Assembly: GCA_013403045.1 (NCBI GenBank) | Contig: GCA_013403045.1_3037.1 | Source of the DNA: Escherichia coli O157:H7 | GTDB taxonomy: Bacteria; Pseudomonadota; Gammaproteobacteria; Enterobacterales; Enterobacteriaceae | Strand: one strand, 5' to 3' | DNA: 64,000 nt | Shown: positions 38,264-64,000 of the stretch, in pieces | Position numbering within the stretch: the first letter of the stretch is position 1 | Layout of the letters: each line of letters starts with the position of its first letter | The notes under the pieces: model-generated | Database searches by the model: none | Told to the model about the DNA's origin: nothing | Seen by the model: the letters and a program-made list of their open reading frames with translations, nothing else | Program-made: the position numbers and the translations under genes

Positions 38264-38287
38264 AGCAGTTTCCTTATGAGTTTATAG

Positions 38288-38295: not shown

Positions 38296-38302
38296 AAGAA
38301 AA

Positions 38303-38321
38303 AGGGAGCCCATGGGCTCCC
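38303..38321 (-). terminator. rho-independent terminator after gene 8
   Basis: AGGGAGCCC-A-TGGGCTCCCT palindrome followed by TTTTTCTTTAT on the transcribed strand. Confidence 0.7.
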
Positions 38322-38326
38322 TTAAT

Positions 38327-44401: not shown

Positions 44402-44409
44402 TTTAAATC

Positions 44410-46960: not shown

Positions 46961-47534
46961 AAGATTTCTCCATTATACGTATAAGGTCGTTCATAAATGA
47001 ATTGATGTCTGATTTTGCTATTATTTTTATTTGACGAAGTTTTTCATTTTCAAGAACAGCCGCTTCATACGTATCGACCGCAGCAAGTGCTCCTTCATAT
47101 TGAGGATATTTTCTAGCTTTATCGCCTTTATCATACCAAACATATGGATTATCATCGTATGATATTAAATTATAAAATTTTTCACCGTTCTCATTCACAT
47201 GATATACTATTTGGTCTCCACCCACATTTTTGTATTTTTGTATAGATGCTTGATAAGCAGCTTCTTGTGAAGTAATCCATCCATAATATGGATCATAATT
47301 ATCATTACACATCAATAAAACCCAATACAGCTGTGGATTTCCATATATAGTATTTGCTAATTCTTCCGGACGTGGTGAACCTTTGATATAATAAGTACGT
47401 AAGCGGTATCCCGCAAGAGCGCGTTTAAAATAGTCTTTATAGTTTCTAAAAATATCTGTCATAGGAATAGTCGGCGCGTTTTTATTCACCGTTTTGGCCG
47501 CATATTCAATCGGATCAAAAAATGTAAAGAGCAT
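46944..47534 (-). CDS. 53: baseplate wedge protein gp53
   Basis: 196 aa; synteny. Confidence 0.85.
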   Translation of the reverse strand: MLFTFFDPIEYAAKTVNKNAPTIPMTDIFRNYKDYFKRALAGYRLRTYYIKGSPRPEELANTIYGNPQLYWVLLMCNDNYDPYYGWITSQEAAYQASIQKYKNVGGDQIVYHVNENGEKFYNLISYDDNPYVWYDKGDKARKYPQYEGALAAVDTYEAAVLENEKLRQIKIIAKSDINSFMNDLIRIMEKSYGNDK

Positions 47535-47547
47535 GGGCCCTCCTGTT

Positions 47548-47570
47548 TATAAATATATTATCTATTTATA
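47548..47570. promoter_or_regulatory. divergent late promoters for gene 4 (plus) and gene 53 (minus)
   Basis: Plus-strand TATAAATA at about 47548-47555 and minus-strand TATAAATA (TATTTATA on plus) at about 47563-47570 in the 47-nt intergenic region. Confidence 0.6.
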
Positions 47571-47581
47571 AGGAGAATCCA

Positions 47582-48034
47582 ATGGCATATTCTGGAAAAT
47601 GGGTTCCTAAAAATATATCAAAGTATAGAGGTGACCCTAAAAAAATTACGTATAGATCAAATTGGGAAAAATTCTTTTTTGAATGGTTAGATAAAAATCC
47701 AGAAATTATTGCATGGGGTAGTGAAACAGCAGTAATTCCTTATTTTTGTAATGCCGAAGGGAAAAAACGTAGATACTTCATGGATATTTGGATGAAAGAT
47801 TCTTCTGGACAAGAATTTTTTATTGAAATAAAACCTAAAAAAGAAACACAACCACCAGTTAAACCAGCACATCTAACAACCGCAGCGAAGAAAAGATTTA
47901 TGAATGAAATTTATACATATTCTGTTAATACCGACAAATGGAAAGCAGCGCAAGCTTTAGCTGAAAAGCGTGGAATAAAATTTAGAATTCTAACAGAAGA
48001 TGGATTACGAGCTCTTGGCTTTAAGGGGGCATAA
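47582..48034 (+). CDS. 4: head completion protein gp4
   Basis: 150 aa; divergent from gene 53; late promoter upstream. Confidence 0.85.
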
Positions 48035-48858
48035 TGGCTATTTTTCAAATAATTAATGAAAGCACTCCCCAAGTTCCAAAGGTTAAGCAATCATTAAACG
48101 AAAAGAAATGGATTCAAATAGGTCTTGAATATAAAAAGGCCAAAGCAAAAGGAATGACAGGAAAGCAATTTGCTGAAGAAAGAGGAATCAAATACTCTAC
48201 GTTTACTTCAGCAATGTCAAAATATGCTTCAGGAATTAAAACGGCTGAAAAGATTCAAAAGCTTGAATCAAAACCAATGAATAAACTCAATAAGCAAGAA
48301 AGACAACTGCTTATGATAAATTCATTCAGACAAACATTGCGTGATAAAATTCGTAATGAAGGTGCAGCAATTAATAATAAAACCAGAAAGTGGTTTGCTG
48401 AAACTATTAAGCAAGTAAAAGGACATAAAGTTGTTCGCCCGCAGCCGGGACGAATATATGCTTTTGCTTATGATGCTAAACACAAGGAAACTCTTCCTTA
48501 CTGGGATAAATTTCCTTTAATAATTTACCTTGGTTTAGGTAAGCATAATTTAATGTATGGATTAAACTTGCACTATATTCCACCTAAAGCTCGTCAACAG
48601 TTTCTAGAAGAGCTTTTAAAGCAATATGCAAATACACCTACTATTACTAATAAAACGAAATTAAAAATTGATTGGAGTCAAGTGAAAGGATTTAGGGGTG
48701 CAGACCAAATGATTAAGGCATATATACCTGGTAATATTATGGGTAGCCTTGTTGAAATCGCCCCGAAAGACTGGGCGAACGTTGTGTTGATGCCACTTCA
48801 GCAGTTCGTTTCAAAAGGAAAACGTTTCTCTGCAAACAAAGTCTGGTCAAATATCTAA
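48034..48858 (+). CDS. 2: DNA end protector protein gp2
   Basis: 274 aa; synteny. Confidence 0.85.
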
Positions 48859-48964
48859 TTCTATTATCTTCCATTCTTTTCTGTTGTTTGTTCTAAATGG
48901 AATTGAATGGAAGGGACTTAGACCCATTATACCACCAACAGTTATAAAGCATTATGAGGAATAT

Positions 48965-49495
48965 ATGTCGCAAGCTCTGCAACAAATTTTTAACCAAGCA
49001 AATACAACTAACTTTGTAGTATCAATACCGCACAGTAATACTACATCTGCTTTTACTTTAAATGCTCAGTCAGTTCCTATTCCAGGAATTAGAATACCTG
49101 TTACTGATACCGTGACTGGGCCGTTTGGACTGGGCCGAGCACAACGTCCAGGTGTTACATTTGAGTATGATCCACTCATTGTGAGATTTATAGTTGATGA
49201 AGAACTTAAGTCGTGGATAGGAATGTATGAATGGATGCTAGGAACTAGCAACTATCTTACAGGTGAAAATACTGCCCAAAAAACAGGTCCTGAGTACATT
49301 ACGCTTTACATCTTAGATAATAGCAAAACTGAAATAGTGATGTCAATAAATTTTTATAAGCCTTGGGTTTCTGACCTATCTGAAGTAGAATTTAGCTACA
49401 CAGAAGATTCAGACCCGGCTTTAGTATGTACTGCAACGATTCCTTACACCTATTTTCAAGTAGAAAAAGATGGTAAAATTATAGCAGAAGTTTAA
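48965..49495 (+). CDS. 3: tail completion and sheath stabilizer protein gp3
   Basis: ORF track starts at 48884; the ATG at 48965 with a GAGGAA ribosome-binding site gives 176 aa starting MSQ, matching T4 gp3 length. Confidence 0.8.
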   Translation: MSQALQQIFNQANTTNFVVSIPHSNTTSAFTLNAQSVPIPGIRIPVTDTVTGPFGLGRAQRPGVTFEYDPLIVRFIVDEELKSWIGMYEWMLGTSNYLTGENTAQKTGPEYITLYILDNSKTEIVMSINFYKPWVSDLSEVEFSYTEDSDPALVCTATIPYTYFQVEKDGKIIAEV

Positions 49496-49519
49496 TGCTT
49501 CAGTTTTGTGTGTTATAAT
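49494..49519 (+). promoter_or_regulatory. middle promoter (MotA box aaTGCTTCA plus extended -10 TGnTATAAT) upstream of gene 1
   Basis: Read directly from sequence, about 25 nt upstream of the gene 1 ATG. Confidence 0.55.
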
Positions 49520-49544
49520 CTTAATTAAATTTGAGGAGAGACAC

Positions 49545-50269
49545 ATGAAACTAATCTTTTTAAGCGGTGTAAAGCGTAGTGGAAAAGATACTACTGCTGA
49601 TTTTATCATGAGCAATTATTCTGCAGTTAAATACCAACTTGCTGGTCCTATTAAGGATGCATTGGCTTATGCATGGGCAGTATTTGCAGCAAACACTGAC
49701 TATCCTTGCTTAACTCGTAAAGAGTTTGAAGGAATTGACTATGATCGTGAGACTAATTTAAATCTGACTAAATTAGAAGTAATCACGATTATGGAACAAG
49801 CATTTTGCTATCTTAATGGTAAAAGCCCAATTAAAGGTGTGTTTGTTTTTGATGACGAAGGAAAAGAATCAGTTAATTCCGTAGCATTTAACAAGATTAT
49901 TGACGTTATAAATAATATTGAAGATCAATGGTCAGTCCGTCGTCTGATGCAAGCCCTAGGTACGGATTTGATTGTTAATAACTTCGACCGCATGTACTGG
50001 GTAAAATTATTTGCTTTAGATTATCTTGATAAATTTAACTCAGGTTATGATTATTATATCGTTCCTGATACTCGTCAAGATCATGAAATGGATGCGGCTA
50101 GGGCGATGGGTGCTACAGTAATTCATGTAGTTCGTCCTGGTCAAAAATCCAATGATACACATATTACAGAAGCTGGATTGCCAATTCGTGATGGTGATTT
50201 AGTAATTACAAACGATGGTTCTCTTGAAGAACTTTTTTCTAAAATTAAAAATACACTAAAGGTACTATA

Positions 50270-50270
<1 letters not shown>
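49545..50270 (+). CDS. 1: dNMP kinase gp1
   Basis: Start at MKLIFLSGVKRSGKDT (P-loop), 241 aa, with GAGGAG ribosome-binding site; the track ORF includes 13 extra upstream codons. Confidence 0.9.
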
Positions 50271-50967
<697 letters not shown>

Positions 50968-50979
50968 TTTCACAAAGTT

Positions 50980-51009
50980 GTTTACACACTGATGAGGTAG
51001 TGATACTAT
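50980..51009 (+). promoter_or_regulatory. early promoter (GTTTACA, 17-nt spacer, TACTAT) upstream of IPI-like gene
   Basis: Motif read from sequence; part of a repeated promoter cassette. Confidence 0.6.
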
Positions 51010-51039
51010 TATCTCATCAAAATTAATTAGGAAAATAAA

Positions 51040-51297
51040 ATGAAAACTTTCAAAGAGTTTGCTACAAAAACTACTATCACTGAATCTTCTCATGGTATGG
51101 AAGTAAAGCTTGGAATGGCTTTAGCTGAAGCTGAGCGTCTTTTCTCTCGTATTAAAGAACTTGCTGCTGCAGTCGATCCTTCGTCTTTTAAAGGAGACCA
51201 AACTAAAGTTAAAGCACTTTTAGCATTATGCTCTGACGCAGGAGAAATCGCTAAAAATGGTTCTAAGATGAAGAAACGATTAGAAGATTTAAAATAA
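51040..51297 (+). CDS. internal protein (IPI-like), capsid-targeted
   Basis: N-terminus MKTFKEFATKTTITE resembles the T4 capsid-targeting sequence with an I-x-E gp21 site; early promoter upstream; located next to 57B where ipI lies in T4. Confidence 0.6.
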   Translation: MKTFKEFATKTTITESSHGMEVKLGMALAEAERLFSRIKELAAAVDPSSFKGDQTKVKALLALCSDAGEIAKNGSKMKKRLEDLK

Positions 51298-51309
51298 TTT
51301 CACAAAGTT

Positions 51310-51339
51310 GTTTACACGGGGTTTTAGTAGTGATACTAT
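51310..51339 (+). promoter_or_regulatory. early promoter (GTTTACA, 17-nt spacer, TACTAT), second copy of the repeated cassette
   Basis: -35 and -10 regions identical to the copy at 50980-51009. Confidence 0.6.
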
Positions 51340-51367
51340 TACCCTATCAACTACTGAGGAGAATAAA

Positions 51368-51553
51368 ATGAAACGCTGTGAATTAATTCGAAATGTTGCT
51401 ATTGCAATTTCTGCTTCCGCTTTTAGTTTTTCAATGTTTGTTGGATTTATATGCGGATTATTAACTACAGCAGAAAATGTATTTTCACTTGTAGTAGCAT
51501 TTTTAATTGGTTTAATTGCTATCGTTATGGATAAAATTTCTAAAGGTGAGTAA
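51368..51553 (+). CDS. small hydrophobic membrane protein (61 aa)
   Basis: GAGGAG ribosome-binding site then ATG; two hydrophobic stretches. Confidence 0.5.
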   Translation: MKRCELIRNVAIAISASAFSFSMFVGFICGLLTTAENVFSLVVAFLIGLIAIVMDKISKGE

Positions 51554-51554
51554 A

Positions 51555-51935
51555 ATGTATAAAGTATATGCAGATTATCAGGCTAATCCATCTGAAAAGC
51601 CAGATTGCCAAATTGGATGGGCTCATGATACCTTGCTTGAAGCAGTAGATGCTGCTCAAAAATTAGGATATAGTTATGTAGATATTGTTCAACCTGGTGG
51701 AACAGTTATTACTCTTGAAGAGTTCAATAACATTAAACCAAACTTTTTACTTTTTGCAGGTGATAATTATTATCCTCGCGGTGGATATGCTGATTTAATC
51801 GCGAAAGCCGCTACCGAAGATGAACTCCGTGACATTATCAAAGAAAATGAGAACAAACCAATGTATGGTTCTAATCGCTTTGATTGGTGGCAAATTGTAA
51901 ATGCCCACACTCATACTATTGTTGATGAAGGGTAA
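51555..51935 (+). CDS. hypothetical protein
   Basis: ORF; likely start MYKVYADY immediately after the upstream stop. Confidence 0.55.
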   Translation: MYKVYADYQANPSEKPDCQIGWAHDTLLEAVDAAQKLGYSYVDIVQPGGTVITLEEFNNIKPNFLLFAGDNYYPRGGYADLIAKAATEDELRDIIKENENKPMYGSNRFDWWQIVNAHTHTIVDEG

Positions 51936-51937
51936 TA

Positions 51938-52228
51938 ATGATTCTTTATGCTAAAGTATCGTCCATTGAAAATGGATATAAATATGATCAAGAAGCAGCT
52001 AAAGCCTTGATTGATGATTATGGCATTTTAACATGTTTTGAAGTTGAAAAGGTTTACATTGACCGTTCATCTTCTCAGGTTAAATTAGTGAAGGAAGACC
52101 GTAAATTTAATACAGTAAATTTTGATTTCTTTATTGAAACAGAAAAAGGTCCTCTTGAATATGATATTTTCAAGAATCCTTTAAATCTTGAATGTATTAA
52201 ATATACTTATATTAATGCAGCGTGGTGA
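51938..52228 (+). CDS. hypothetical protein
   Basis: 96-aa ORF tightly packed with neighbours. Confidence 0.55.
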   Translation: MILYAKVSSIENGYKYDQEAAKALIDDYGILTCFEVEKVYIDRSSSQVKLVKEDRKFNTVNFDFFIETEKGPLEYDIFKNPLNLECIKYTYINAAW

Positions 52229-52230
52229 AA

Positions 52231-52746
52231 ATGAATATTTGTTTAGGTACTACAATTCCGCAGGGTTACGTAATTGATGTCACTACCTGGGAAAATGATG
52301 GTGACAACTATAAAACTAAAACACTGTTTGGCGTAGAAGAGCATGAAATCTTACAGTTCCAATATCTTTTAAAGAAGTTTAAAAGCAGACATTCTAGTAC
52401 TAAAGCTGAACGTTATTGTGGTAATGGCTTGTTCAGCGAGCAATCGCTTTTTATTTATGAATACTTGGTTGAAGGACTGTTCTCAGAACAACTTTATCCA
52501 GAATTCATTAAAAAGGTCTTTGATATAGAAGTTGACCTTGGTAATAAATCCGAAGAAGATGAAGAACGTGTATTTGACTTATTCTTTGTGAATGGTAATA
52601 AGATATTTGAAGGCCTTATTGATATTCTTGGTCATGCTTCTGAATATTATGACTATGATTTCTTGCGTGTAGTTGAGAGTGTTAAATACTCTTATATAGA
52701 AGAAGAAATTGTTTTGCCGACCGTTAAAATGTTTAATTTGCTTTAA
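52231..52746 (+). CDS. hypothetical protein
   Basis: ORF; ATG at 52231 after the GTG listed by the track. Confidence 0.55.
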   Translation: MNICLGTTIPQGYVIDVTTWENDGDNYKTKTLFGVEEHEILQFQYLLKKFKSRHSSTKAERYCGNGLFSEQSLFIYEYLVEGLFSEQLYPEFIKKVFDIEVDLGNKSEEDEERVFDLFFVNGNKIFEGLIDILGHASEYYDYDFLRVVESVKYSYIEEEIVLPTVKMFNLL

Positions 52747-52843
52747 GAATTATTTGTTATTATTAACTCATACCGCACTGATTAATACCCTCTATCATCA
52801 GAGAAAGTCCAATAGGCAGAACAGGAGATTGGATTCTTTTAAT

Positions 52844-52984
52844 TATGCTTGTTAATATTTTGACAGCAGCAATATTATCTGGGATATGGTGCGCGTTCAT
52901 TGAAATGCCATGGCGGTTACGCAGACAGCAAAAGATTTTTGATGAAAAGAAATATACTCAAAATTTAAATAACTTTATCACTGA

Positions 52985-53002
<18 letters not shown>
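52844..53002 (+). CDS. possible small membrane peptide (52 aa)
   Basis: Short ORF with a hydrophobic N-terminus, overlapping the nudE start; weak ribosome-binding site. Confidence 0.25.
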
Positions 53003-53972
<970 letters not shown>

Positions 53973-53977
53973 AGTTA

Positions 53978-54006
53978 TTTACTTTCTCCTAGAATTGTGA
54001 TAGTAT
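53978..54006 (+). promoter_or_regulatory. early promoter (TTTACT, 17-nt spacer, TAGTAT) upstream of internal-protein gene
   Basis: Motif read from sequence. Confidence 0.5.
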
Positions 54007-54066
54007 ATTCACAGTTACTTGAAGAGATAAATTATTAATTAAAATATTTACATTTAAAGGATACAC

Positions 54067-54540
54067 ATGAAAACATATCAAGAATTTATTACTGAAGCAG
54101 CTATTAATTCTCAAATTATTGCTGAATCTTTTACTGATCTTTTGAAATTTAAAAAAGGTCAAAAAATCACTGCTGTATTGGATGATGGTACAGAAGTTGA
54201 GATGGATGTACAGGGATATAATTATGCAGTAGATGGAAAACTGTATAATAAATCTCATGCTAAATTTGATTCATTTGACGACTTTGTTAATACAGTTGAA
54301 GATGAAAAAACTCGTAGATCCATTGCAACTGGCGACGCTAAGGTTCTTATGGCACATGGCCATGAACGCATCCGCGCTAAACAGAATAAAATGGGCGAAG
54401 ATAATTTTGCATTAGTTGGTTATCAATCTGGTAAACAAACTTATGGCTATCAGCGTACTGCTACCATGTATAACAAAAATGGTAAAATTGCCTTTGTGAA
54501 TAGTAAAGGTTCTATTCAGTACGTTAAATCGTTCAAATAA
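54067..54540 (+). CDS. internal protein (IPII/IPIII-like), capsid-targeted
   Basis: N-terminus MKTYQEFITEAAINSQIIAE has capsid-targeting sequence features and I-x-E sites; early promoter upstream. Confidence 0.7.
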   Translation: MKTYQEFITEAAINSQIIAESFTDLLKFKKGQKITAVLDDGTEVEMDVQGYNYAVDGKLYNKSHAKFDSFDDFVNTVEDEKTRRSIATGDAKVLMAHGHERIRAKQNKMGEDNFALVGYQSGKQTYGYQRTATMYNKNGKIAFVNSKGSIQYVKSFK

Positions 54541-54645
54541 GCAAATAAGAAATATGGGAACAAGCTGGACCTCATGATTCTGTGAGGGATTCCCGCCAAC
54601 CTGTAATAAGGTCGAGCCCAAGTGCGGTAATGGGTAAATACAGAA

Positions 54646-55233
54646 ATGGACAATTCATGCGCCATGGAATGGCCCAAATTTAGAGAGAATAAAATGAGAA
54701 CATTTTTAACTGGTCCTTATCTATCCCTGATGAATGCTTTTACACACCATTCTGATGCTAGAGTAGAAGAAATTTGTAAAAACGATTATATCCCACCATT
54801 TGAAGAATTACTTAAACAGTATTGCACACTTCGACTAGATGGTGGACGTCAATCCGGTAAATCAATTGCTGTGACTAACTTTGCTGCTAATTGGTTGTAT
54901 GATGGCGGAACAGTTATCGTTCTTTCTAATACTTCAGCTTACGCTAAAATTTCTGCAAATAACATTAAAAAGGAATTTTCGCGTTATTCTAATGATGATA
55001 TACGTTTTCGTTTATTTACTGATTCTGTGCGCAGTTTTATTGGTAATAAAGGAAGCAAGTTCAGAGGTTTATCGCTTTCGCGAATTTTGTATATAATTGA
55101 TGAGCCTGTCAAATCTCCTGATATGGATAAGATTTATAGTGTCCATATTGAGACTGTACACTACTGCTGTAATAGTAAATGTTGTATTGGTGGTATTACT
55201 CGTCCACAGTTTTTCGTAATCGGAATGCAATGA
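54646..55233 (+). CDS. small P-loop NTPase, unknown function
   Basis: Walker A GGRQSGKS and Walker B ILYIIDEP; C-terminal Cys cluster HYCCNSKCC. Start may be the internal Met at about 54694. Confidence 0.55.
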   Translation: MDNSCAMEWPKFRENKMRTFLTGPYLSLMNAFTHHSDARVEEICKNDYIPPFEELLKQYCTLRLDGGRQSGKSIAVTNFAANWLYDGGTVIVLSNTSAYAKISANNIKKEFSRYSNDDIRFRLFTDSVRSFIGNKGSKFRGLSLSRILYIIDEPVKSPDMDKIYSVHIETVHYCCNSKCCIGGITRPQFFVIGMQ

Positions 55234-55559
55234 TGACAGACACTCAGCTTTTCGAATATCTTTATTTTTCGCCAAAAACTATTAAAAATAAATTGGTGAA
55301 TCATTTTGAAATTTTGGCAAATAACAACGTCTTGAGCGAATTTTATCCTAAGCAATACAAATTACAAAAAGGCGTATTCAAAGGATGCAGAGTTTTGTGT
55401 ACTGCTCCTAATGCACGGCTAATGAATAAAATTCCATATTTTACCATGGAATTTATTGATGGTCCTTTTAAAGGACTAATCACACAGAGTTTAATGGCAT
55501 ATGATTCTGAGCCATTTTTAATTAAAGAACAATCTTGGATAAATTTATTTTCTAATTGA
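55230..55559 (+). CDS. hypothetical protein
   Basis: ATG overlaps the upstream stop (ATGA), suggesting translational coupling. Confidence 0.5.
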
Positions 55560-55566
55560 GGTTTAT

Positions 55567-55929
55567 ATGAAAGCATATCAAATTCTTGAAGGCACACATA
55601 AAGGTACTATTTATTTTGAAGATGGTATTCAAGCACGAATTATTGTCTCTAAAACCTTTAAAGAGGACTCTTTTGTAGACCCAGAAATTTTCTATGGTTT
55701 GCATGCCCGTGAAATTGAAATTGAGCAACAGCCTACAGTTAAAATTGAAGGTGGTCAACACCTGAACGTTAACGTTCTGCGTCGCGAAACTCTGGAAGAT
55801 GCAGTTAAGCATCCGGAAAAATATCCGCAGCTGACCATCCGTGTATCCGGTTATGCAGTTCGCTTTAACTCTCTGACTCCGGAACAGCAGCGCGACGTTA
55901 TCGCTCGTACCTTTACTGAGAGTTTGTAA
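55567..55929 (+). CDS. autonomous glycyl radical cofactor (GrcA/YfiD-like; T4 Y06I-like)
   Basis: C-terminal 60 aa ([60 protein letters not shown]) matches E. coli GrcA from memory, including the radical Gly in RVSGYAVRF. Confidence 0.85.
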
Positions 55930-56150
55930 TGGCAAAGATAATTATTGAAGGTTCTAAAGATGTGCTAAATGCTTTCGCCGAGTGGTTTAGTAATTCAGGC
56001 GAACAGCAATTTAATGAAGCCTGGAATATGGGTGATATTGATGGAATTTATCCTACGACAGAAATTTCTGTTCAAGGATATGGCATTCATGAACCTATTC
56101 GTTTAGTTGAATATGATTTATGTACTGGTGAGGAAGTCAAATATGATTGA
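55929..56150 (+). CDS. hypothetical protein
   Basis: 73-aa ORF, start overlapping the upstream stop. Confidence 0.5.
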   Translation: MAKIIIEGSKDVLNAFAEWFSNSGEQQFNEAWNMGDIDGIYPTTEISVQGYGIHEPIRLVEYDLCTGEEVKYD

Positions 56151-56409
56151 AGACATTAAAGGTTATAAGCCGCATACTGAAGAGAAAATCGGTAAAGTGA
56201 ATGCTATTAAAGACGCTGAAGTTCGTTTAGGACTTATCTTTGACGCTTTATACGATGAATTCTGGGAAGCACTAGATAATTGTGAAGATGATGAACTCGC
56301 GAAGAATTATGCTGAAAGCCTCGATCAGTTAACTATTGCTAAAACGAAACTCAAAGAAGCCAGTATGTGGGCTTGTCGTGCAGTGTTCCAACCAGAGGAA
56401 AAATACTAA
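56143..56409 (+). CDS. hypothetical protein
   Basis: ORF; internal ATG at 56143 overlaps the upstream stop. Confidence 0.5.
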
Positions 56410-56687
56410 TGGCTCAATTAAGTGCAGGGTTTGGTTATGAGTATTATACTGCACCTCGTCGTGTATCTGCCGCTCCTAAGAAAATTCAAAGTCTTGATGA
56501 CTTCCAGGAAGTAGTCCGTAAAGCTTTTCAGGACTATGCACGTTATCTTAAAGAAGATTCACAGGACTGTCTCGAAGAAGATGAAATTGCTTACTATGAG
56601 CAGCGTCTTGAACAGCTTAAAAACTTACATGAGGTTCGTGCAGAAGTTTCAAAGTCTATGAATAAATTGATTAGATTTAAAGAATAA
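56409..56687 (+). CDS. hypothetical protein
   Basis: ORF; TAATG start/stop overlap. Confidence 0.5.
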
Positions 56688-56689
56688 CT

Positions 56690-56719
56690 GTTTACTTTTC
56701 CTCTTGACTGTGGTATAAT
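56690..56719 (+). promoter_or_regulatory. early promoter (GTTTACT, 17-nt spacer, TATAAT) upstream of regB
   Basis: Motif read from sequence, about 30 nt before the regB ATG. Confidence 0.6.
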
Positions 56720-56746
56720 TTTTCTATCAGTTAAGAGGAGAATAAC

Positions 56747-57208
56747 ATGACTATCAATACAGAAGTTTTTATCCGTCGAAATAAGCTTCGTCGTCACTTT
56801 GAGTCGGAGTTTCGTCAAATTAACAATGAGATTCGTGAGGCATCAAAAGCAGCAGGAGTCTCATCGTTTCATCTAAAATATTCTCAACATCTTCTTGATC
56901 GTGCAATTCAACGGGAGATTGATGAGACATATGTTTTTGAATTATTCCATAAAATAAAAGACCATGTTTTAGAAGTTAATGAATTCCTGAGTATGCCTCC
57001 GCGTCCTGACATTGACGAGGATTTTATTGATGGGGTTGAATATCGTCCTGGACGTTTAGAAATCACAGATGGAAATCTTTGGCTTGGATTTACAGTTTGT
57101 AAGCCTAATGAGAAGTTTAAAAACCCGTCACTTCAATGCAGGATGGCAATTATCAACAGTCGTCGTTTACCAGGAAAGGCTTCTAAAGCAGTAATTAAAA
57201 CTCAATGA
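56747..57208 (+). CDS. regB: RegB site-specific endoribonuclease
   Basis: 153 aa, MTINTEVFIRRNKLRRHFESEF matches T4 RegB from memory; early promoter upstream. Confidence 0.9.
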   Translation: MTINTEVFIRRNKLRRHFESEFRQINNEIREASKAAGVSSFHLKYSQHLLDRAIQREIDETYVFELFHKIKDHVLEVNEFLSMPPRPDIDEDFIDGVEYRPGRLEITDGNLWLGFTVCKPNEKFKNPSLQCRMAIINSRRLPGKASKAVIKTQ

Positions 57209-57215
57209 GGTAAGC

Positions 57216-57761
57216 ATGAGAAAAGCACTACTCGCTGGTCTATTGGCCATTTCAATGATGGCACATAGCTCCGAGCATACTTTCAGTAATGTCCAACTCG
57301 ATAACATGCGTTACGCGTATCAATTCGGGGAACAATTTTCTAAGGATGGAAAATATAAAACACACAAAAATATCCACAAGAGCGGATTAGGTCATATAAT
57401 GGCTGCTATTTTATGGCAAGAAAGCTCTGGCGGAGTTAATTTAAAATCTAAACCAAAGCATCACGCCTACGGAATGTTCCAAAATTATTTGCCTACTATG
57501 CGAGCAAGAGTTAAGGAACTTGGTTATAATATGACCGATGCTGAAATAAAAAGAATGTTGAATAAACGATCCAATTCAGCTTCCTGGGCGTACATTGAAC
57601 TTTCTTATTGGTTAAATATACATAAGGGCGATATAAGAAAAGCAATATCCTCTTATAATTCGGGATGGAATGTTAAAGCAGGTTCTAAATATGCTTCTGA
57701 AGTCCTAGAAAAGGCTAATTACCTTAAAAATAATAAACTTTTGGAAATAGTAAATGACTAA
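57216..57761 (+). CDS. secreted lytic transglycosylase-like protein (SLT domain)
   Basis: N-terminal signal peptide MRKALLAGLLAISMMAHS; ILWQESSGG ... YGMFQ resembles the SLT catalytic region. Confidence 0.6.
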   Translation: MRKALLAGLLAISMMAHSSEHTFSNVQLDNMRYAYQFGEQFSKDGKYKTHKNIHKSGLGHIMAAILWQESSGGVNLKSKPKHHAYGMFQNYLPTMRARVKELGYNMTDAEIKRMLNKRSNSASWAYIELSYWLNIHKGDIRKAISSYNSGWNVKAGSKYASEVLEKANYLKNNKLLEIVND

Positions 57762-58101
57762 AATTTTGGTTTTATGTATAGGATTAATTTCATTTTCTGC
57801 TTCTGCGTCAGCAGATACATCATATACTGAAATTAGAGAATATGTAAACCGCACTGCGGCAGATTATTGTGGGAAAAATAAAGCATGCCAAGCTGAATTT
57901 GCACAGAAATTAATATATGCATATAAAGACGGAGAAAGAGATAAATCAAGTAGATACAAAAACGATACATTATTAAAACGATATGCTAAAAAGTGGAATA
58001 CCTTAGAATGTTCAGTTGCGGAGGAGAAAGATAAAGCCGCTTGTCATTCAATGGTTGACCGTTTGGTAGATTCTTATAATCGAGGATTGAGTACTAGATG
58101 A
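57754..58101 (+). CDS. small secreted Cys-containing protein
   Basis: Signal peptide MTKILVLCIGLISFSASASA; four Cys residues. Confidence 0.5.
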   Translation: MTKILVLCIGLISFSASASADTSYTEIREYVNRTAADYCGKNKACQAEFAQKLIYAYKDGERDKSSRYKNDTLLKRYAKKWNTLECSVAEEKDKAACHSMVDRLVDSYNRGLSTR

Positions 58102-58565
58102 TTGTAAAATATATCAAGGGCGATATTGTCGCCCTTTTCGCTGAAGGTAAAAATATTGCGCATGGATGTAATTGTTTTCACACGATGAAAGCTGGAGTCG
58201 CAGGTCAATTAACTAAAGCTTTCCCTAAAATTTTGGAAGCTGATAAATTACAGACTGAATGGGGTGATGTAACTAAACTTGGTTCTTATTCAGTCTATGA
58301 AAAATACTTTAGGACTCATAAAGCTTACTGCTTTAATCTTTATACTCAATTTCAACCAGGGCCAAATTTTGAGTATTCCGCTTTAATGAATTGTATGTTA
58401 GAATTAAATGAGTTTGGTAAAAATAAACTGATTAAACCTACAATCTATATGCCTAGGATTGGTGCAGGCATAGGTAAAGGGAACTGGGATATTATTGAGG
58501 GGATTTTAGATACATATTCTTCTAAATTAGAAATTGTGATTGTTGATTGGGAACCGTTATTATGA
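58098..58565 (+). CDS. macro-domain protein (putative ADP-ribose binding / hydrolase)
   Basis: IVKYIKGDI ... NIAHGCNCFHTMKAGVAGQL and IYMPRIGAGIGKGNW resemble macro-domain motifs (GDIT ... VNAAN ... GGGV ... FPxISTGxYG). Confidence 0.55.
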   Translation: MIVKYIKGDIVALFAEGKNIAHGCNCFHTMKAGVAGQLTKAFPKILEADKLQTEWGDVTKLGSYSVYEKYFRTHKAYCFNLYTQFQPGPNFEYSALMNCMLELNEFGKNKLIKPTIYMPRIGAGIGKGNWDIIEGILDTYSSKLEIVIVDWEPLL

Positions 58566-58774
58566 ATATACATTATCCACATCCATATGACCCAAAGAAT
58601 AAGGCAGTAATTATTCGTCAATGGGAACGCATTTGTCGTACTAAATGTCCAATTAATAGTCCACATGATGTAGATAAAGACTACATTGGAACATTCGTTG
58701 AATATACCTTTATTGATAAGAAAGGTCGTAAACAGCATGTAGAAGAATACTGCTTAAAGGTTACATGGTTATGA
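58562..58774 (+). CDS. hypothetical protein
   Basis: ORF; likely start MNIHYPHPYD. Confidence 0.5.
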   Translation: MNIHYPHPYDPKNKAVIIRQWERICRTKCPINSPHDVDKDYIGTFVEYTFIDKKGRKQHVEEYCLKVTWL

Positions 58775-58977
58775 GCCAAACTAGTATTCTTAAAAATGCC
58801 CACTGTGAAAAGTGTAAATGGCCGGTTGTTTTTGCTTTATGCAACGATGAAATGGCTTGTGATTTCGATTATTGGTGCTATTGTTCTAATAAAGGATGCA
58901 TCAATCATAAAGGTGAAGGATTTTATTCGGGATTTTATCCTTATCCTGATTTCGTTAAAGAAGGTAAACCAAAATGA
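58765..58977 (+). CDS. small Cys-rich (putative zinc-binding) protein
   Basis: About 10 Cys in 70 aa (CEKCKW ... C ... C ... CYC ... C). Confidence 0.5.
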   Translation: MVMSQTSILKNAHCEKCKWPVVFALCNDEMACDFDYWCYCSNKGCINHKGEGFYSGFYPYPDFVKEGKPK

Positions 58978-59150
58978 ATGATGATTTAAAATATCAATTA
59001 TTACGTGAACTTGATGTTTTGATTGAACTTTCTGCGCAAAAAGGATTTATAATTGGATCAGGTCAAAAAGACCCCAACGGTCATTCAATCGTAGCGGTTA
59101 TGAATCAGAAACGAGTCATTTTAAAACTTTTGGGGATTGACATACTGTGA
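58974..59150 (+). CDS. small hypothetical protein (58 aa)
   Basis: ATG overlaps the upstream stop; found by reading the sequence, not in the ORF track. Confidence 0.4.
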   Translation: MNDDLKYQLLRELDVLIELSAQKGFIIGSGQKDPNGHSIVAVMNQKRVILKLLGIDIL

Positions 59151-59332
59151 GTCTAAGCAAAGAACAAAAAGATAAATTGTTTGAGCTTATCCATGAACTT
59201 CTAGATGAGCATATAGAAGCAAACACCTTTTATGATGAATACGGCCCGCTATCTCCCGAACAGCAGGAAGAATTTGCTGATCGGTTTGATAAGAAAGAAA
59301 ATGAATTAATAGCTTATGTGAATACGCTTTAA
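59147..59332 (+). CDS. small acidic hypothetical protein
   Basis: ORF with GTG start overlapping the upstream stop. Confidence 0.4.
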   Translation: MSLSKEQKDKLFELIHELLDEHIEANTFYDEYGPLSPEQQEEFADRFDKKENELIAYVNTL

Positions 59333-59341
59333 GAAGGTGAT

Positions 59342-59923
59342 ATGGCGAGTTTAATTTTTACTTATGCAGCAATGAATGCTGGAAAATCTGCTTCTCTTTT
59401 GACTGCTGCACATAATTATAAAGAACGTGGAATGAGTGTATTAGTTCTTAAGCCTGCTATTGATACTCGCGATTCTGTCTGTGAAGTTGTTTCTCGCATT
59501 GGAATTAAACAGGAAGCGAATATTATTACAGATGATATGGATATTTTCGAGTTCTATAAATGGGCTGAAGCACAAAAAGATATTCATTGCGTATTTGTAG
59601 ATGAAGCTCAGTTTTTAAAAACTGAACAGGTGCATCAATTAAGTCGAATTGTTGATACATATAATGTTCCTGTTATGGCTTATGGATTAAGGACTGATTT
59701 CGCTGGAAAATTGTTTGAAGGTTCTAAAGAACTTTTAGCGATTGCAGATAAACTTATTGAACTAAAGGCAGTTTGTCATTGTGGTAAAAAAGCGATTATG
59801 ACAGCTCGATTAATGGAAGATGGAACACCAGTTAAAGAAGGTAATCAAATCTGTATTGGTGATGAAATTTATGTTTCTTTGTGTAGAAAACATTGGAATG
59901 AATTAACTAAAAAGCTCGGTTAG
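59342..59923 (+). CDS. tk: thymidine kinase
   Basis: 193 aa; P-loop AAMNAGKSASLL; Cys cluster CHCGKKA. Confidence 0.95.
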   Translation: MASLIFTYAAMNAGKSASLLTAAHNYKERGMSVLVLKPAIDTRDSVCEVVSRIGIKQEANIITDDMDIFEFYKWAEAQKDIHCVFVDEAQFLKTEQVHQLSRIVDTYNVPVMAYGLRTDFAGKLFEGSKELLAIADKLIELKAVCHCGKKAIMTARLMEDGTPVKEGNQICIGDEIYVSLCRKHWNELTKKLG

Positions 59924-59965
59924 TGCAAAAGTTATAAATAGGTTTATCTAACTAAAGGGGTATAT

Positions 59966-60178
59966 ATGCTACAATTAACTGAAAAGCAACTTCGCAATCT
60001 TACTGTTCTTCAATTAGATGAAATTCGTAGGGAAGTTGGAAATATCATTTCAGCTTTGCGTCGAGAAGTATCACTCAACCAATCTCCGGCAGACTATACT
60101 AGATTGCGAAATTTTGAAAAATACCTTGATAAAGTTAAGGCCGTGCATCGGCATAAAGTAAATACAGGACAAAAATGA
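59966..60178 (+). CDS. hypothetical protein
   Basis: 70-aa ORF between tk and rI. Confidence 0.5.
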
Positions 60179-60190
60179 TAGGAGGCCTTT

Positions 60191-60484
60191 ATGGCCTTAA
60201 AAGCAACGGCACTTTTTGCCATGCTAGGATTGTCATTTGTTTTATCTCCATCGATTGAAGCGAATGTCGATCCTCATTTTGATAAATTTATGGAATCTGG
60301 TATTAGGCACGTTTATATGCTTTTTGAAAATAAAAGCGTAGAATCGTCTGAACAATTCTATAGTTTTATGAGAACGACCTATAAAAATGACCCGTGCTCT
60401 TCTGATTTTGAATGTATAGAACGAGGCGCGGAGATGGCACAATCATACGCTAGAATTATGAACATTAAATTGGAGACTGAATGA
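60191..60484 (+). CDS. rI: lysis inhibition regulator RI
   Basis: 97 aa with N-terminal signal-anchor MALKATALFAMLGLSFVLSPSIEA; length and position match T4 RI. Confidence 0.85.
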   Translation: MALKATALFAMLGLSFVLSPSIEANVDPHFDKFMESGIRHVYMLFENKSVESSEQFYSFMRTTYKNDPCSSDFECIERGAEMAQSYARIMNIKLETE

Positions 60485-60867
60485 AATTCAGCGACTTTTC
60501 ACAAAGTGGAAAACCTTCAAAGGCAGATGAATACTTAGGTTTATTAATGGCTGCACAAGCTTATTTTCATTCTGCACATTTTGAAACTAAAAGTTATGCT
60601 AGACACAAAGCATACGATTTTATTTTCTCCGAGTTGCCAGATTTGATTGATAAATTTGGTGAGCAATATTTGGGGTATTCTGGTAGAAAATACACGCCTT
60701 CAATTCCAGATGCCAGTAAACTTCCTACCGACACAATTAAAATGATTGATCGCATACTAGACCAATCTAACAGCATTTATAAAGAAATGCCTCCAGCCAT
60801 TCAAAGCACGATAGATGATATTACTGGGATGTTTTACCAGAGTAAGTATCTTCTTTCCCTCGAATAA
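60481..60867 (+). CDS. hypothetical protein (rI.-1-like)
   Basis: 128-aa ORF, ATGA-coupled to rI; terminator downstream. Confidence 0.6.
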
Positions 60868-60871
60868 CATT

Positions 60872-60896
60872 AGTCTCCTTCGGGAGACTTTTTTCA
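60872..60896 (+). terminator. rho-independent terminator after rI.-1 (UUCG tetraloop)
   Basis: AGTCTCC-TTCG-GGAGACT followed by TTTTTTCATTTT. Confidence 0.7.
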
Positions 60897-60904
60897 TTTT
60901 ACCG

Positions 60905-60934
60905 GTTTACTTTCCGTTTGAGCTGTGGTACTAT
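60905..60934 (+). promoter_or_regulatory. early promoter (GTTTACT, 17-nt spacer, TACTAT)
   Basis: Motif read from sequence upstream of ORF 60963. Confidence 0.5.
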
Positions 60935-60962
60935 ACAACTATCGGATAAAGAGGAGAACATC

Positions 60963-61151
60963 ATGAAAATTGAAGCACTCAATCAAGAAGGAAATATCTA
61001 CGTCATCATTAATGGTGATTTTTTCGTCGACATGGATGAAGTTACTAGTGAAGAACTTGTAGAATTTCTTAAGAAACGTTATAATATGTGTGATGAAGTT
61101 GCAACTCACATGGCGTGTGCAATATTCTCTCTTTCATATGTGGTGGAATAA
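60963..61151 (+). CDS. small hypothetical protein
   Basis: AGAGGAG ribosome-binding site then ATG (MKIEA...); early promoter upstream. Confidence 0.45.
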
Positions 61152-61354
61152 TGATTAGTATCGAACAAGCGGATAAGATTAAAGAATTGGTAGCTTTAAT
61201 TCGTAAAGCAGACGAGGAACTTAGTGACTTTGCTTGGTTTTCGTCAGGCATTGCAAATAAAGGCATTGATGAACTTGAAGCTAAAGTTGATAATGCTTTA
61301 GAAGCGTTAGATATGTTTCTTGATGAAATTATCGATCATAATACGAGAGTTTAA
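61151..61354 (+). CDS. small hypothetical protein
   Basis: TAATG-coupled ORF. Confidence 0.45.
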   Translation: MISIEQADKIKELVALIRKADEELSDFAWFSSGIANKGIDELEAKVDNALEALDMFLDEIIDHNTRV

Positions 61355-61356
61355 TT

Positions 61357-61551
61357 ATGCTAACACGCGAACAGTTTGAAAAAATCATTAAATTAGCACG
61401 TGATATTGAAATAGATTCATATCAATTGGCAGTTGAGCATTGTGAAGGATATTCATACGACGGTATAGAAGCAGCTAAAAAGGATTTGGACAAATCTAAA
61501 GCTAAGTTAGTTCAATATCTTGAAATGATTAGGTGGAATAATGAAAACTGA
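61357..61551 (+). CDS. small hypothetical protein
   Basis: 64-aa ORF. Confidence 0.45.
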   Translation: MLTREQFEKIIKLARDIEIDSYQLAVEHCEGYSYDGIEAAKKDLDKSKAKLVQYLEMIRWNNEN

Positions 61552-61711
61552 AAAGCAGATGTTTTTAATGAAACTAATTGAAGAATATGCTAATGCAGTT
61601 TCTGACTATGAGTGTTCTTCTCGGGAAAGAGGTACAGCTTTCGCAAAGGAAGAAATGAAAATCATGGTTGATGCTCACACAAAGCTTCAGAATTTTATTG
61701 AAAACGTCATT
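61541..61711 (+). CDS. small hypothetical protein (56 aa)
   Basis: ATG overlapping the end of the upstream ORF; read from sequence. Confidence 0.3.
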
Positions 61712-61716
61712 TAATG

Positions 61717-61746
61717 GTTTACAAGTTGGCAAGGTTATGGTATAGT
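61717..61746 (+). promoter_or_regulatory. early promoter (GTTTACA, 17-nt spacer, TATAGT)
   Basis: Motif read from sequence; followed by an AAGGAG ribosome-binding site and a 34-codon hydrophobic mini-ORF (about 61775-61879). Confidence 0.5.
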
Positions 61747-61881
61747 AATCTTGTCAACTGCCAAGGAGAAGAGAATGAAAGTTTTGTTTGTTGTGTATGT
61801 GATGATTCAATATAATTACCCAATGTTTACTTATAATCTGGTGAACAACATTATTGATATTATTCAAAGGAGTATGTAATT

Positions 61882-62439
61882 GTGAGTGAGTCGAAGAGAA
61901 TCAATATGAAACGATTAGTATTAGAAGTTAGTCCGCTTTTTGGTGAATTGACTATAGAAAAAGTAAATAACATGTATCGTTTGACGCAAGAAGACGATAT
62001 GCTATATTTTACGCCTAGTGAAATCATTCATTTAACCCAAATTGAATATCCTTATACTGATAAAATAGTAAGCATCAATGATGAGCACAAAATTCATTTT
62101 TATTCTTCATGCCCAGGATTTAATATTAAAAGTGAGTCAATGTGTTTATCAGTTATCCATTGGGATAGTTTTATAGCTAAGATTAAATATTTTTATTATT
62201 CTAATGAAAGAAAACATAGTTTAAAATGGCTCAAAAATTGCAATGCTATTATTACTAACGCTTGCAATCAGAATGATGAAACTCTTTTAAATGTATCAAA
62301 ATGTTATGAAGAGGGAGATGTCTTAACTATTCGCCAAATTGACGATTTTCGATCACATATCATTACATTTACCAAAGACGAAGCTATTGCGCTAAAGACT
62401 TATCTTGATTCTGTTATTCCAACTATGATTTCAAAGTGA
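61882..62439 (+). CDS. hypothetical protein, paralog of 62446-62967
   Basis: ORF; C-terminal motif shared with the next gene. Confidence 0.5.
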   Translation: MSESKRINMKRLVLEVSPLFGELTIEKVNNMYRLTQEDDMLYFTPSEIIHLTQIEYPYTDKIVSINDEHKIHFYSSCPGFNIKSESMCLSVIHWDSFIAKIKYFYYSNERKHSLKWLKNCNAIITNACNQNDETLLNVSKCYEEGDVLTIRQIDDFRSHIITFTKDEAIALKTYLDSVIPTMISK

Positions 62440-62445
62440 GGAAAT

Positions 62446-62967
62446 ATGTTTATTTCAAGTGGAAGTGGTTTAATTCGTGTTGAATTTAAAAATGACATCT
62501 TTCTTATTCAAGGAGATGATATTATTAAAATGAGTTATGACGAAATCAAGAAAATTTGTCATGCTCTTGAAAGTCATGGAAAAGTGAACGCTGTTATTGA
62601 TATTGGCGATTTATGGGTGACACTTTATGAAGTATCCGAAGGATTTAACATTGAAGATGAAAATAACATTTTAGCTATTGATAAAAGAAGTGATTTGTTT
62701 GATGTATTAAAAGTTTATGAACAGTCAAATGGCGGAAGAAAAGCTGCATTGATTTATCAAAAACCGCATTCATGTGGAACTGCTTCAATCATTTCAAATA
62801 TTGAAGATGAAGTTGATACTTATATGTGTGTTTTAAAAGCTGGTGGTGACCGTCATCCGGATTTTATTTCTATTCGTCAAAACAATGGAGAAATTTCATT
62901 ATCAAAATCAGAAGCTGAAGCTATGATTAAGTATTTAACAACTGTTACGCCTTCAATGAAAGGATAA
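62446..62967 (+). CDS. hypothetical protein, paralog of 61882-62439
   Basis: ORF; C-terminus ISLSKSEAEAMIKYLTTVTPSMKG resembles ITFTKDEAIALKTYLDSVIPTMISK of the upstream gene. Confidence 0.5.
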   Translation: MFISSGSGLIRVEFKNDIFLIQGDDIIKMSYDEIKKICHALESHGKVNAVIDIGDLWVTLYEVSEGFNIEDENNILAIDKRSDLFDVLKVYEQSNGGRKAALIYQKPHSCGTASIISNIEDEVDTYMCVLKAGGDRHPDFISIRQNNGEISLSKSEAEAMIKYLTTVTPSMKG

Positions 62968-62969
62968 TT

Positions 62970-63431
62970 ATGATTATTAATGAAAACTCTTGGCACTATA
63001 AATTATTCAAATTGTTTAACGATGAATGGCAACGACCTAAGACACTATGCGCATATTTTTGGTCTATTGCCATTCCTACATTTTTCGTTTCTATTTTTGG
63101 ATGTGCTATACTCGTAGGGCTAACAATTATTTGTGCAGAAAGCCTACAACGTTGGCTTATTTTCGGTAGTTTATGGACTCTTCTTCCATCGGCATTTATA
63201 CTTGCACTTTTGGTTGTTTTACTTATTATCGGTTCATTTGTTATTCCTGCACATTTGCGTGAAAAATATAAAGATTATAAATGGAAAAAGGATTATGCTT
63301 TACACGTAGAAAATATTGATAGGGCGTATAAAGGTTTACCTCCTATTCAACCCAAGAAATCGGTTATCGTTGAATTTTTAAAAGCTCGTAAAGCTAAAGT
63401 ATGTCCTGTTATTGAATATAAGGCTGAATGA
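62970..63431 (+). CDS. membrane protein with two predicted transmembrane helices
   Basis: Two long hydrophobic segments. Confidence 0.5.
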   Translation: MIINENSWHYKLFKLFNDEWQRPKTLCAYFWSIAIPTFFVSIFGCAILVGLTIICAESLQRWLIFGSLWTLLPSAFILALLVVLLIIGSFVIPAHLREKYKDYKWKKDYALHVENIDRAYKGLPPIQPKKSVIVEFLKARKAKVCPVIEYKAE

Positions 63432-64000
63432 TGAAAACAGTAATGAAAAGCTATTTTGGTAGTCATCTTTATGGAACTTCTACTCCAGAATCTGATGTAG
63501 ATTTTAAAGAAATCTTTGTTCCTCCTGCTCGCGATATTCTTATTGGAAATGTTAAAGAGCACATGAGTAAAAATACTAACAACACATCATCTAAAAACAC
63601 TAAAGATGATATTGACCATGAACTATACAGTCTTAAATATTTCTTTAAATTAGCAGCAGATGGTGAAACTGTAGCATTGGATATGCTTCACACTCCACCT
63701 GAACTAGTGGTTAAATCTGATTTGCCTGATGTGTGGAAGTTTATTCAAGACAACCGTTCTCGTTTTTATACGACTAACATGAAATCCTATTTAGGATATG
63801 TCCGCAAGCAAGCTTCTAAATACGGTGTCAAGGGTTCTCGTTTGGCTGCATTACGTGATGTATTGAAAGTAGTTAATCAAATCCCTGAGCAGTGGATTGA
63901 TTACCAAGAAGATGGTTCTATTAAGCAGCGTCGCACTAAAGTTGAAGATATTAAGCATCGTCTTCCAGAAAACGAATTCTGTGAATGGGTGTTCCATAAT
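63428..64000 (+). CDS. nucleotidyltransferase-fold protein (partial; 3' end beyond window)
   Basis: Open frame from the ATGATG at about 63428 to the window end (191 codons, no stop). FGSHLYGTSTPESDVDF fits the GS ... DxD motif of Pol-beta-type nucleotidyltransferases. Confidence 0.5.
   Translation, partial: MMKTVMKSYFGSHLYGTSTPESDVDFKEIFVPPARDILIGNVKEHMSKNTNNTSSKNTKDDIDHELYSLKYFFKLAADGETVALDMLHTPPELVVKSDLPDVWKFIQDNRSRFYTTNMKSYLGYVRKQASKYGVKGSRLAALRDVLKVVNQIPEQWIDYQEDGSIKQRRTKVEDIKHRLPENEFCEWVFHN

Follow-up and report, generated by a model that had tools for sequence, protein, structure and literature searches.

The tk.4 gene of phage AR1 encodes an orthologue of T4 AdfM, a predicted glutamine-type macrodomain that probably counters DarTG2

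The DNA analysed here, a stretch of 64,000 nucleotides referred to as the window, belongs to Escherichia phage AR1, a T4-like Tequatrovirus whose host is E. coli O157:H7. About 2.8 kb around the open reading frame under study are 100% identical to NC_027983.1 / AP011113.1. Comparison of the AR1 Alt proteins with the window by tblastn showed that it is composed of AR1 122756..69957 followed by 63894..52695. The same search ruled out an arrangement in which the window would be a plain reverse complement of AR1 with the alt genes outside, both Alt proteins being found at the window start. AR1_202, an Alt-like ADP-ribosyltransferase cut by the window edge, is represented by its C-terminal 221 aa (positions 1..666, + strand; 100% identity in tblastn over residues 465-685), while the annotated AR1_201, of the same type, is complete (670..2727, + strand; 100% over 685 aa). 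The two proteins are 41.6% identical to each other. The pair of Alt-type ADP-ribosyltransferases announced by the original prediction is thus present in the window, one complete and one as a C-terminal part, at a distance of about 55 kb from the gene described below.

This gene, annotated tk.4 in AR1 (AR1_116), is listed as an open reading frame at 58098..58565 on the + strand and encodes a single macrodomain of 155 aa devoid of any extra domain. The motifs that had been quoted for it (GDI, NIAHGCNCFHTMKAGVAGQL and IYMPRIGAGIGKGNW) are all found in its translation. According to the AR1 annotation and the sequence, tk.4 is preceded by vs, which encodes the valyl-tRNA synthetase modifier (57754..58101, + strand), and followed by tk.3 (58562..58774, + strand). 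Its ATG overlaps the vs stop codon (ATGA, 58098-58101) and its own stop codon overlaps the tk.3 ATG in the same manner (ATGA, 58562-58565). The gene therefore lies within a tightly packed block of co-directional genes, regB-vs.1-vs-tk.4-tk.3-...-tk, upstream of the thymidine kinase gene, and vs adjoins a tk.4-like gene in many related phages. A tk.4-like ORF is kept as a protein in 2817 phage records, which marks it as a genuine gene, not a fortuitous reading frame, and Tk.4 is among the proteins found in cells infected with T2 (bioRxiv 10.64898/2026.06.19.733364). Promoter-like sites were fewer in a sigma-70 promoter scan than in shuffled sequence (26 vs 30.8), so we drew no claim on transcription from promoter or terminator scans. 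A hairpin of 8 bp (58116-58136) close to the 5' end of the tk.4 coding sequence was also discarded, its folding being no better than that of shuffles (z = -1.35). The names given to the gene in public records are diverse: its RefSeq product name in AR1 is "phosphatase", other records read "macro domain protein", "Poa1p-like" or "Poa1p_like family protein", and "O-acetyl-ADP-ribose deacetylase" occurs as a further homology-derived label among tk.4-type records.

AR1 Tk.4 and T4 Tk.4 are of equal length and align without gaps, with 152 of 155 residues identical. The three substitutions, given from AR1 to T4, are K31G, A32S and K108E, the first of which places a lysine of AR1 in a glycine-rich binding loop. 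Every residue that is invariant in the family is present in both proteins, both genes have vs and tk.3 as neighbours, and AR1 tk.4 occupies the slot that defines the orthologous group, between vs and tk.3 and upstream of tk. Judged by sequence and gene order, the ORF at 58098..58565 is the AR1 orthologue of T4 tk.4, also named adfM.

The assignment of Tk.4 to the macrodomains was supported by profile searches and by structure prediction. The Pfam Macro profile PF01661 matched AR1 Tk.4 with 24.8 bits (E=2.2e-5), above its gathering cut-off of 22, over residues 22-132 of the protein and positions 2-113 of the 118 in the profile; a precomputed match to this profile exists for 44 of 65 aligned homologues. 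The PHROG 335 family, labelled "phosphatase", matched with E=2e-64. When Tk.4 was compared with PDB sequences using phmmer, BT1257 (2e-8), Poa1p (3e-5), TARG1 (2e-3) and SCO6735 (4e-3) were found, together with DarG macrodomains (9e-3 and 0.087). DarG was also the sole match, a weak one, in the PADLOC and NCBIfam libraries. The AlphaFold2 model of Tk.4, calculated from an alignment of 66 homologues, has a pLDDT of 95 and a pTM of 0.90 and shows the three-layer α/β/α fold of macrodomains. Foldseek retrieved 127 PDB matches to this model at E<=1e-3, those listed being either macrodomains or enzymes designed on a macrodomain scaffold. TARG1, Poa1p, BT1257, DarG and SCO6735 came first (E 3e-9 to 3e-6, TM 0.7-0.8), the best matches being TARG1 and Poa1p (E about 3e-9 to 1e-8), and MacroD-type and viral macrodomains ranked after this group. 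Given this order, the modelled structure of Tk.4 is that of a macrodomain of the ALC1/TARG1-like class (TARG1/Poa1p/BT1257/DarG). The macro-domain call of the original prediction, for which an HMM search and a structure prediction had been proposed as checks, was borne out by both.

Conservation was examined over the set of 66 homologues, which extends down to 34% identity. G23, N25, G33, A35, D49, Y82, T83, Q84, P119, I121 and G124 are invariant, and H22, C24, C26, M30 and W130 nearly so. Four conserved segments were delineated, all on the + strand. The first is the HGCN active-site motif (H22-G23-C24-N25, codons at 58161..58172), whose H22 and C24 are conserved in at least 90% of the homologues. 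The second, delineated from column counts and from the comparison with T4, is a predicted glycine-rich ADP-ribose-binding loop (M30-K31-A32-G33-V34, 58185..58199). The third is Y82-T83-Q84 (58341..58349), identical in 66/66 sequences, and the fourth a predicted second diphosphate-binding loop of the form PxIGxG (P119-R-I-G-A-G-I-G-K-G-N-W130, 58452..58487). Profile alignments with hhalign placed Q84 opposite a lysine in three proteins: the catalytic K80 of Thermus aquaticus DarG (probability 98.1%), the catalytic K84 of human TARG1 (98.3%), whose catalytic D125 corresponds to G126 of Tk.4, and the lysine of the PTK motif in AdfM of phage PhiKZ (96.6%), whose N23 corresponds to N25. The strongest alignment was obtained with SCO6735 of Streptomyces coelicolor (98.8%, E=1.2e-16), in which Q84 faces a glutamine, Q85, H22 faces H24 and N25 faces N27. 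The numbering of SCO6735 was verified on the 5E3B chain and the TARG1 sequence on PDB 2LGR.

SCO6735 has neither the Lys nor the Asp found in TARG1 and DarG, yet it outperforms both in stripping DarT-made ADP-ribose from thymidine, and it can also rescue cells from DarT (PMC9411070). Replacement of its glutamine (Q85A or Q85E) yields an inactive protein in which hydrolysis of ADPr-thymidine is abolished, and the mechanism proposed is one in which Gln orients the substrate and catalysis is initiated by a water molecule held by the backbone (PMC9411070). Tk.4 combines two features of the SCO6735/BT1257 subclass, a Gln at the catalytic-Lys position and a His-x-Cys-Asn motif. It also shares the fold class of SCO6735 (5E3B) and of Bacteroides BT1257 (2FG1), and all three are stand-alone single domains. 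They nevertheless differ in sequence (20-26% identity), in the surroundings of the glutamine (IGQH in SCO6735 and BT1257, YTQF in Tk.4) and in their cellular versus phage host. The SCO6735 subclass has been described with an extra "mobile loop" element (PMC9411070). From the alignment of Q84 with Q85 and the activity of SCO6735 without the lysine, we class T4-type AdfM as a glutamine-type ALC1-like macrodomain that would be DarG-like in action. Since the lysine that DarG and TARG1 use for catalysis is absent from Tk.4, the hydrolase mechanism suggested for it rests on the analogy with SCO6735; this similarity is seen only at the profile level (hhalign 98.8%), with about 20% identity.

The lysine at position 31 distinguishes AR1 from most of the family, the M-G-(A/S)-G loop having a Gly there in T4 and in 57 of the 66 homologues. 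It is shared by cluster P0001 (122 member sequences) and by cluster P0003, which is 92% identical and differs by a dozen other substitutions. The presence of K31 in diverged lineages with an intact ORF suggests that this allele is tolerated and may well be functional.

The phenotype associated with tk.4 comes from phage T4. In a preprint of 20 November 2025 describing HIDEN-SEQ, a T4 transposon library was screened on E. coli in which DarTG2 was expressed; only tk.4 reached significance, as the one gene conditionally essential on this host, and its clean knockout sensitised T4 to DarTG2 (bioRxiv 10.1101/2025.11.20.689424). Its authors likened T4 Tk.4 to the DarG macrodomain of Mycobacterium tuberculosis, named the gene adfM, for anti-DarT factor Macrodomain, and put forward removal of ADP-ribose from DNA as the role of its product (bioRxiv 10.1101/2025.11.20.689424). 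T4 devoid of both adfA and adfN, the latter being gene 30.3 encoding a NADAR enzyme directed against DarTG1, stays resistant to DarTG2 (PMC11825919). This resistance predicted the existence of a further factor, a gap that the tk.4 result fills. The evidence on T4 tk.4 consists of genetics described in a preprint, and the literature searched yielded no biochemical assay of T4-type Tk.4. The finding at this locus is thus correct but already known as T4 tk.4/adfM. The earlier view of the function of the ORF as undefined has been superseded, the gene having both a name and a phenotype, while the suggestion that it could counter host ADP-ribosylating defences, with DarTG named, fits the published genetics of this 98%-identical orthologue. 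What our analysis may add goes slightly beyond the published description and is confined to two points read from sequence comparison: the active site is of the glutamine type, and T4-type AdfM is not orthologous to PhiKZ AdfM.

This second point arises because the name AdfM was given independently to PhiKZ gp104 (Cell Reports 2026, PMC13309987). PhiKZ gp104 was shown by biochemical assay to take DarT2-made ADP-ribose off a TNTC oligonucleotide, and its activity is reduced when the conserved catalytic-site asparagine is mutated (N23A construct) (PMC13309987). Like Tk.4, it is an orphan phage macrodomain acting against DarTG2, and the two have this asparagine in common (N23 = N25). However, the PhiKZ protein is DarG-like: it scores 132.9 bits with the PADLOC DarG profile versus 30 for Tk.4, matches M. 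tuberculosis DarG with E=9e-25 and keeps the PTK lysine. Pairwise BLASTP between the PhiKZ protein and Tk.4 aligned 23 residues (E 0.018). We therefore rejected the equation of Tk.4 with PhiKZ AdfM, on account of this near-absent pairwise similarity and of the DarG-like character of the PhiKZ protein. By these comparisons the name AdfM covers two non-orthologous proteins of distinct lineages.

Membership of Tk.4 in the DarG family itself, to which the wording of the T4 preprint points, was likewise rejected. Tk.4 has the fold class of the DarG macrodomain of DarTG2 (5M31, 5M3E, 5M3I) and presumably also acts on DarT2-made ADPr-thymidine, with reversal of DarT2 action as the common biological logic, but it has Q84 in place of K80, it is devoid of the C-terminal domain that binds DarT, and its neighbours are vs and tk.3 instead of darT. 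With the NCBIfam DarG equivalog NF048014 it scored 25.4 bits against a cut-off of 250, over profile positions 2-146 of 338. TARG1 (OARD1; TM 0.69-0.72 to Tk.4) and yeast Poa1p (TM 0.78-0.81) both share the PRIGxG loop, but the K84/D125 catalytic dyad of TARG1 is replaced by Q84/G126, which sets Tk.4 apart from TARG1-type enzymes, and Poa1p, which acts on ADP-ribose 1''-phosphate, has a Ser at the position of the Tk.4 Gln. In its strategy Tk.4 resembles AdfN (T4 30.3), an orphan antitoxin-like phage hydrolase that cleans ADP-ribosylated DNA in defence against DarTG1. AdfN has an unrelated NADAR fold, is directed at the guanosine adducts of DarT1 and does not act against DarTG2 (PMC11825919). 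AR1 also carries AdfN (AR1_207), encoded outside the window.

On this basis, we propose that AR1 Tk.4 is probably an orphan antitoxin-like macrodomain hydrolase that counters DarTG2 through removal of ADP-ribose from thymidine. In a host carrying DarTG2, DarT2 ADP-ribosylates thymidines in single-stranded phage DNA and blocks replication. The macrodomain cleft of Tk.4 would bind the ADP-ribose adduct and hydrolyse the ribose-thymine bond, releasing free ADP-ribose and restoring replicable DNA. The predicted site is of the glutamine type and would comprise H22, N25, Q84 and two glycine loops (residues 30-35 and 119-128). If it works as SCO6735 does, Q84 would hold the substrate and a water network in place and would not itself be a nucleophile, in contrast to the catalytic Lys in DarG and TARG1. 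The layout of the gene block suggests that tk.4 may be expressed before DNA replication. The structural neighbours TARG1, DarG and SCO6735 all cleave thymine-linked ADPr (PMC9411070, PMC13036486), and we expect the same activity of Tk.4, including in the form encoded by the AR1 allele with K31.

An extension of this proposal, which we regard as unlikely, is that T4-type AdfM represents a lysine-less glutamine-type lineage, recruited independently of PhiKZ AdfM, with a substrate range wider than that of DarG, as is the case for SCO6735. If so, candidate substrates would be uracil- or thymine-linked ADPr on RNA and DNA, or ADPr on acidic residues of proteins, Tk.4 could protect against hitherto undescribed ADP-ribosylating defences or trim by-products of the Alt and Mod enzymes of the phage itself, and the G31K change of AR1-type alleles could shift specificity.

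A mode of action in which Tk.4 neutralises DarTG2 mainly by stoichiometric binding and blocking of DarT2, and not by cleaning DNA, also has to be considered. Catalytically dead SCO6735 (Q85A), DarG (K80A) and TARG1 (K84A) all inhibit DarT in vitro, SCO6735 most strongly (PMC9411070). As DarT can be inhibited through binding by such macrodomains, protection alone is no proof of hydrolysis, and the T4 data are purely genetic. However, the 155 residues of Tk.4 correspond to the macrodomain part of the DarG model and do not include the domain through which DarG binds DarT at its C-terminus. The strictly invariant N25, G33, Q84, P119 and G124 are moreover residues of the ADP-ribose site, a better fit to a catalytic pocket than to an interface specific for the toxin, and AdfN and PhiKZ AdfM, phage factors with an analogous role, work as enzymes. 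We therefore consider blocking of the toxin to be quite improbable as the main mechanism.

Still more doubtful is the idea that Tk.4 acts on small ADP-ribose derivatives such as ADP-ribose 1''-phosphate, O-acetyl-ADP-ribose or ADPr-derived immune signals. A role of this kind (Appr1p phosphatase, OAADPr deacetylase, immune-signal degradation) is what the database labels and Iyer et al. (PMC9503650) would point to. It agrees with the "phosphatase", "Poa1p-like" and "O-acetyl-ADP-ribose deacetylase" annotations, with the rank of Poa1p among the best structural matches (TM up to 0.81) and with the phmmer alignment of H22 and T29 to Poa1p H23 and S30, which are mutated in PDB 6LFS and 6LFT. These annotations, however, are homology transfers and not tests, the sole phenotype established by experiment for the orthologue concerns a defence system that modifies DNA, and the invariant Gln matches that of the DNA-active SCO6735, where Poa1p has its Ser.

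The original prediction had also linked Tk.4 to the phage's own Alt-type transferases, whose ADP-ribosylation it could reverse or tune. This part of its interpretation found no support, while its identification of a macrodomain and its suggestion of a counter-defence role were right. Tk.4-like macrodomains are more than twice as frequent as the Alt catalytic domain (2817 versus 1224 phage records), and the distributions across genera are decoupled: Salmonella phage records hold 297 macrodomains versus 30 Alt domains, and Pseudomonas (184) and Vibrio (131) appear in the macrodomain counts but not among the ten genera listed for Alt, many phages of Pseudomonas, Vibrio and Salmonella carrying the macrodomain where Alt matches are few or absent. 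The bonds formed by Alt, ModA and ModB are N-glycosidic, on arginine, and their reversal normally falls to enzymes of the ARH/DraG type. Erasure or tuning of the phage's own marks (Alt, ModA and ModB marks on host proteins, ModB RNAylation), which would accord with the two Alt paralogues of the genome, both visible in the window, and with the existence of an arginine-specific macrodomain, MavL (as cited in PMC13036486), is the least supported rival and in our view highly improbable, since such bonds are normally cleaved by other enzymes, the gene families are decoupled, the structural neighbours of Tk.4 are the TARG1/DarG/SCO6735 class and not MavL, and it was only with DarTG2 that the T4 screen yielded a phenotype.

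Removal of DarT2-made adducts from phage DNA is our preferred role for Tk.4. DarTG systems stop phages through ADP-ribosylation of phage DNA, and T-even phages stack their counter-measures against them: AdfA, AdfN as the NADAR enzyme that counters DarTG1 and, for DarTG2, the Tk.4 macrodomain. The glutamine-type site and the non-orthology with the PhiKZ protein, as deduced here, would matter for the choice of mutants and for annotation, and leave the overall picture unchanged. AR1 is studied for the control of E. coli O157:H7, and recognition of tk.4 in its genome helps to predict host range on strains that carry DarTG2.

Colinearity between the window and the record of Escherichia phage AR1 (NC_027983.1 / AP011113.1) was broken at window 52800/52801. 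Positions 1..52800 correspond, in reverse complement, to AR1 122756..69957 (a single mismatch over 46.7 kb), and positions 52801..64000 correspond, in the same orientation, to AR1 63894..52695, so that 6062 bp (AR1 63895..69956) are absent at the junction. In AR1 this gap spans a portion of ar1_129, genes e.3-e.5, ar1_136-139, the full set of ten tRNA genes and segD. Among the 533 phage records with a match to either side, not one carried the two sides contiguously, microhomology was looked for at the breakpoint and none was present, and the coordinate of the breakpoint in the window is a round number. The junction may correspond to a deletion variant or to an artefact of window assembly. The first 2727 nucleotides (window 1..2727) encode AR1_202 and AR1_201, tandem Alt-like ADP-ribosyltransferase paralogues sharing 41.6% identity over ~720 aa. 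The number of Alt-like domain matches per record was one for T4 and two to three for several close relatives.

Within tk.4, the macrodomain gene, a perfect 8-bp stem (AAGGGCGA/TCGCCCTT, 5-nt loop) was located at window 58116..58136, 18 nt inside the coding sequence and spanning codons K7-L13. This stem is probably incidental, because the surrounding 86 nt did not fold better than shuffled sequences (z = -1.35). At position 31 of the protein, in the glycine-rich ADP-ribose-binding loop, the residue is Lys in AR1 (codon at window 58188..58190) and Gly in T4 and in 57 of the 66 homologues of the family alignment; the K31 allele was also found in two database clusters, P0001 (122 members) and P0003.

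The name AdfM covers two non-orthologous phage macrodomains: T4 Tk.4 is of the Gln type and only distantly related to the antitoxin macrodomain DarG, whereas PhiKZ gp104 is DarG-like and retains the lysine. In a 2026 preprint (bioRxiv 10.64898/2026.06.19.733364), T2 tk.4 is labelled 'putative thymidine kinase', a mis-annotation derived from the gene name. In the Streptomyces phage Muntaha, gp136 (positions 601..1077 of the locus L004), annotated 'hypothetical protein', is closely related to two ALC1-like macrodomains, BT1257 at E=1e-46 and SCO6735 at E=5e-39; it also matched the macrodomain of human ALC1 (E=3e-13). Streptomyces phages therefore also carry SCO6735-type macrodomains.

By annotation, further counter-defence or ADP-ribose-related genes lie near tk.4, namely vs.4, which in T4 is Acb2, 57B/acb1 and the Nudix gene nudE. 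The segment from nudE through tk.4 occupies window ~53000..58600, and 57B lies further upstream. Free ADP-ribose is a substrate for hydrolysis by T4 NudE and would also be what AdfM releases. The 57B/acb1 gene is anti-CBASS (bioRxiv 10.1101/2025.11.20.689424). Beyond the window, gene 30.3 (AR1_207, AR1 126948..127406) is by name the orthologue of T4 AdfN, a NADAR enzyme that counters DarTG1 (PMC11825919). Since AR1 carries 30.3 besides tk.4, it probably encodes both erasers of DNA ADP-ribosylation, AdfN and Tk.4.
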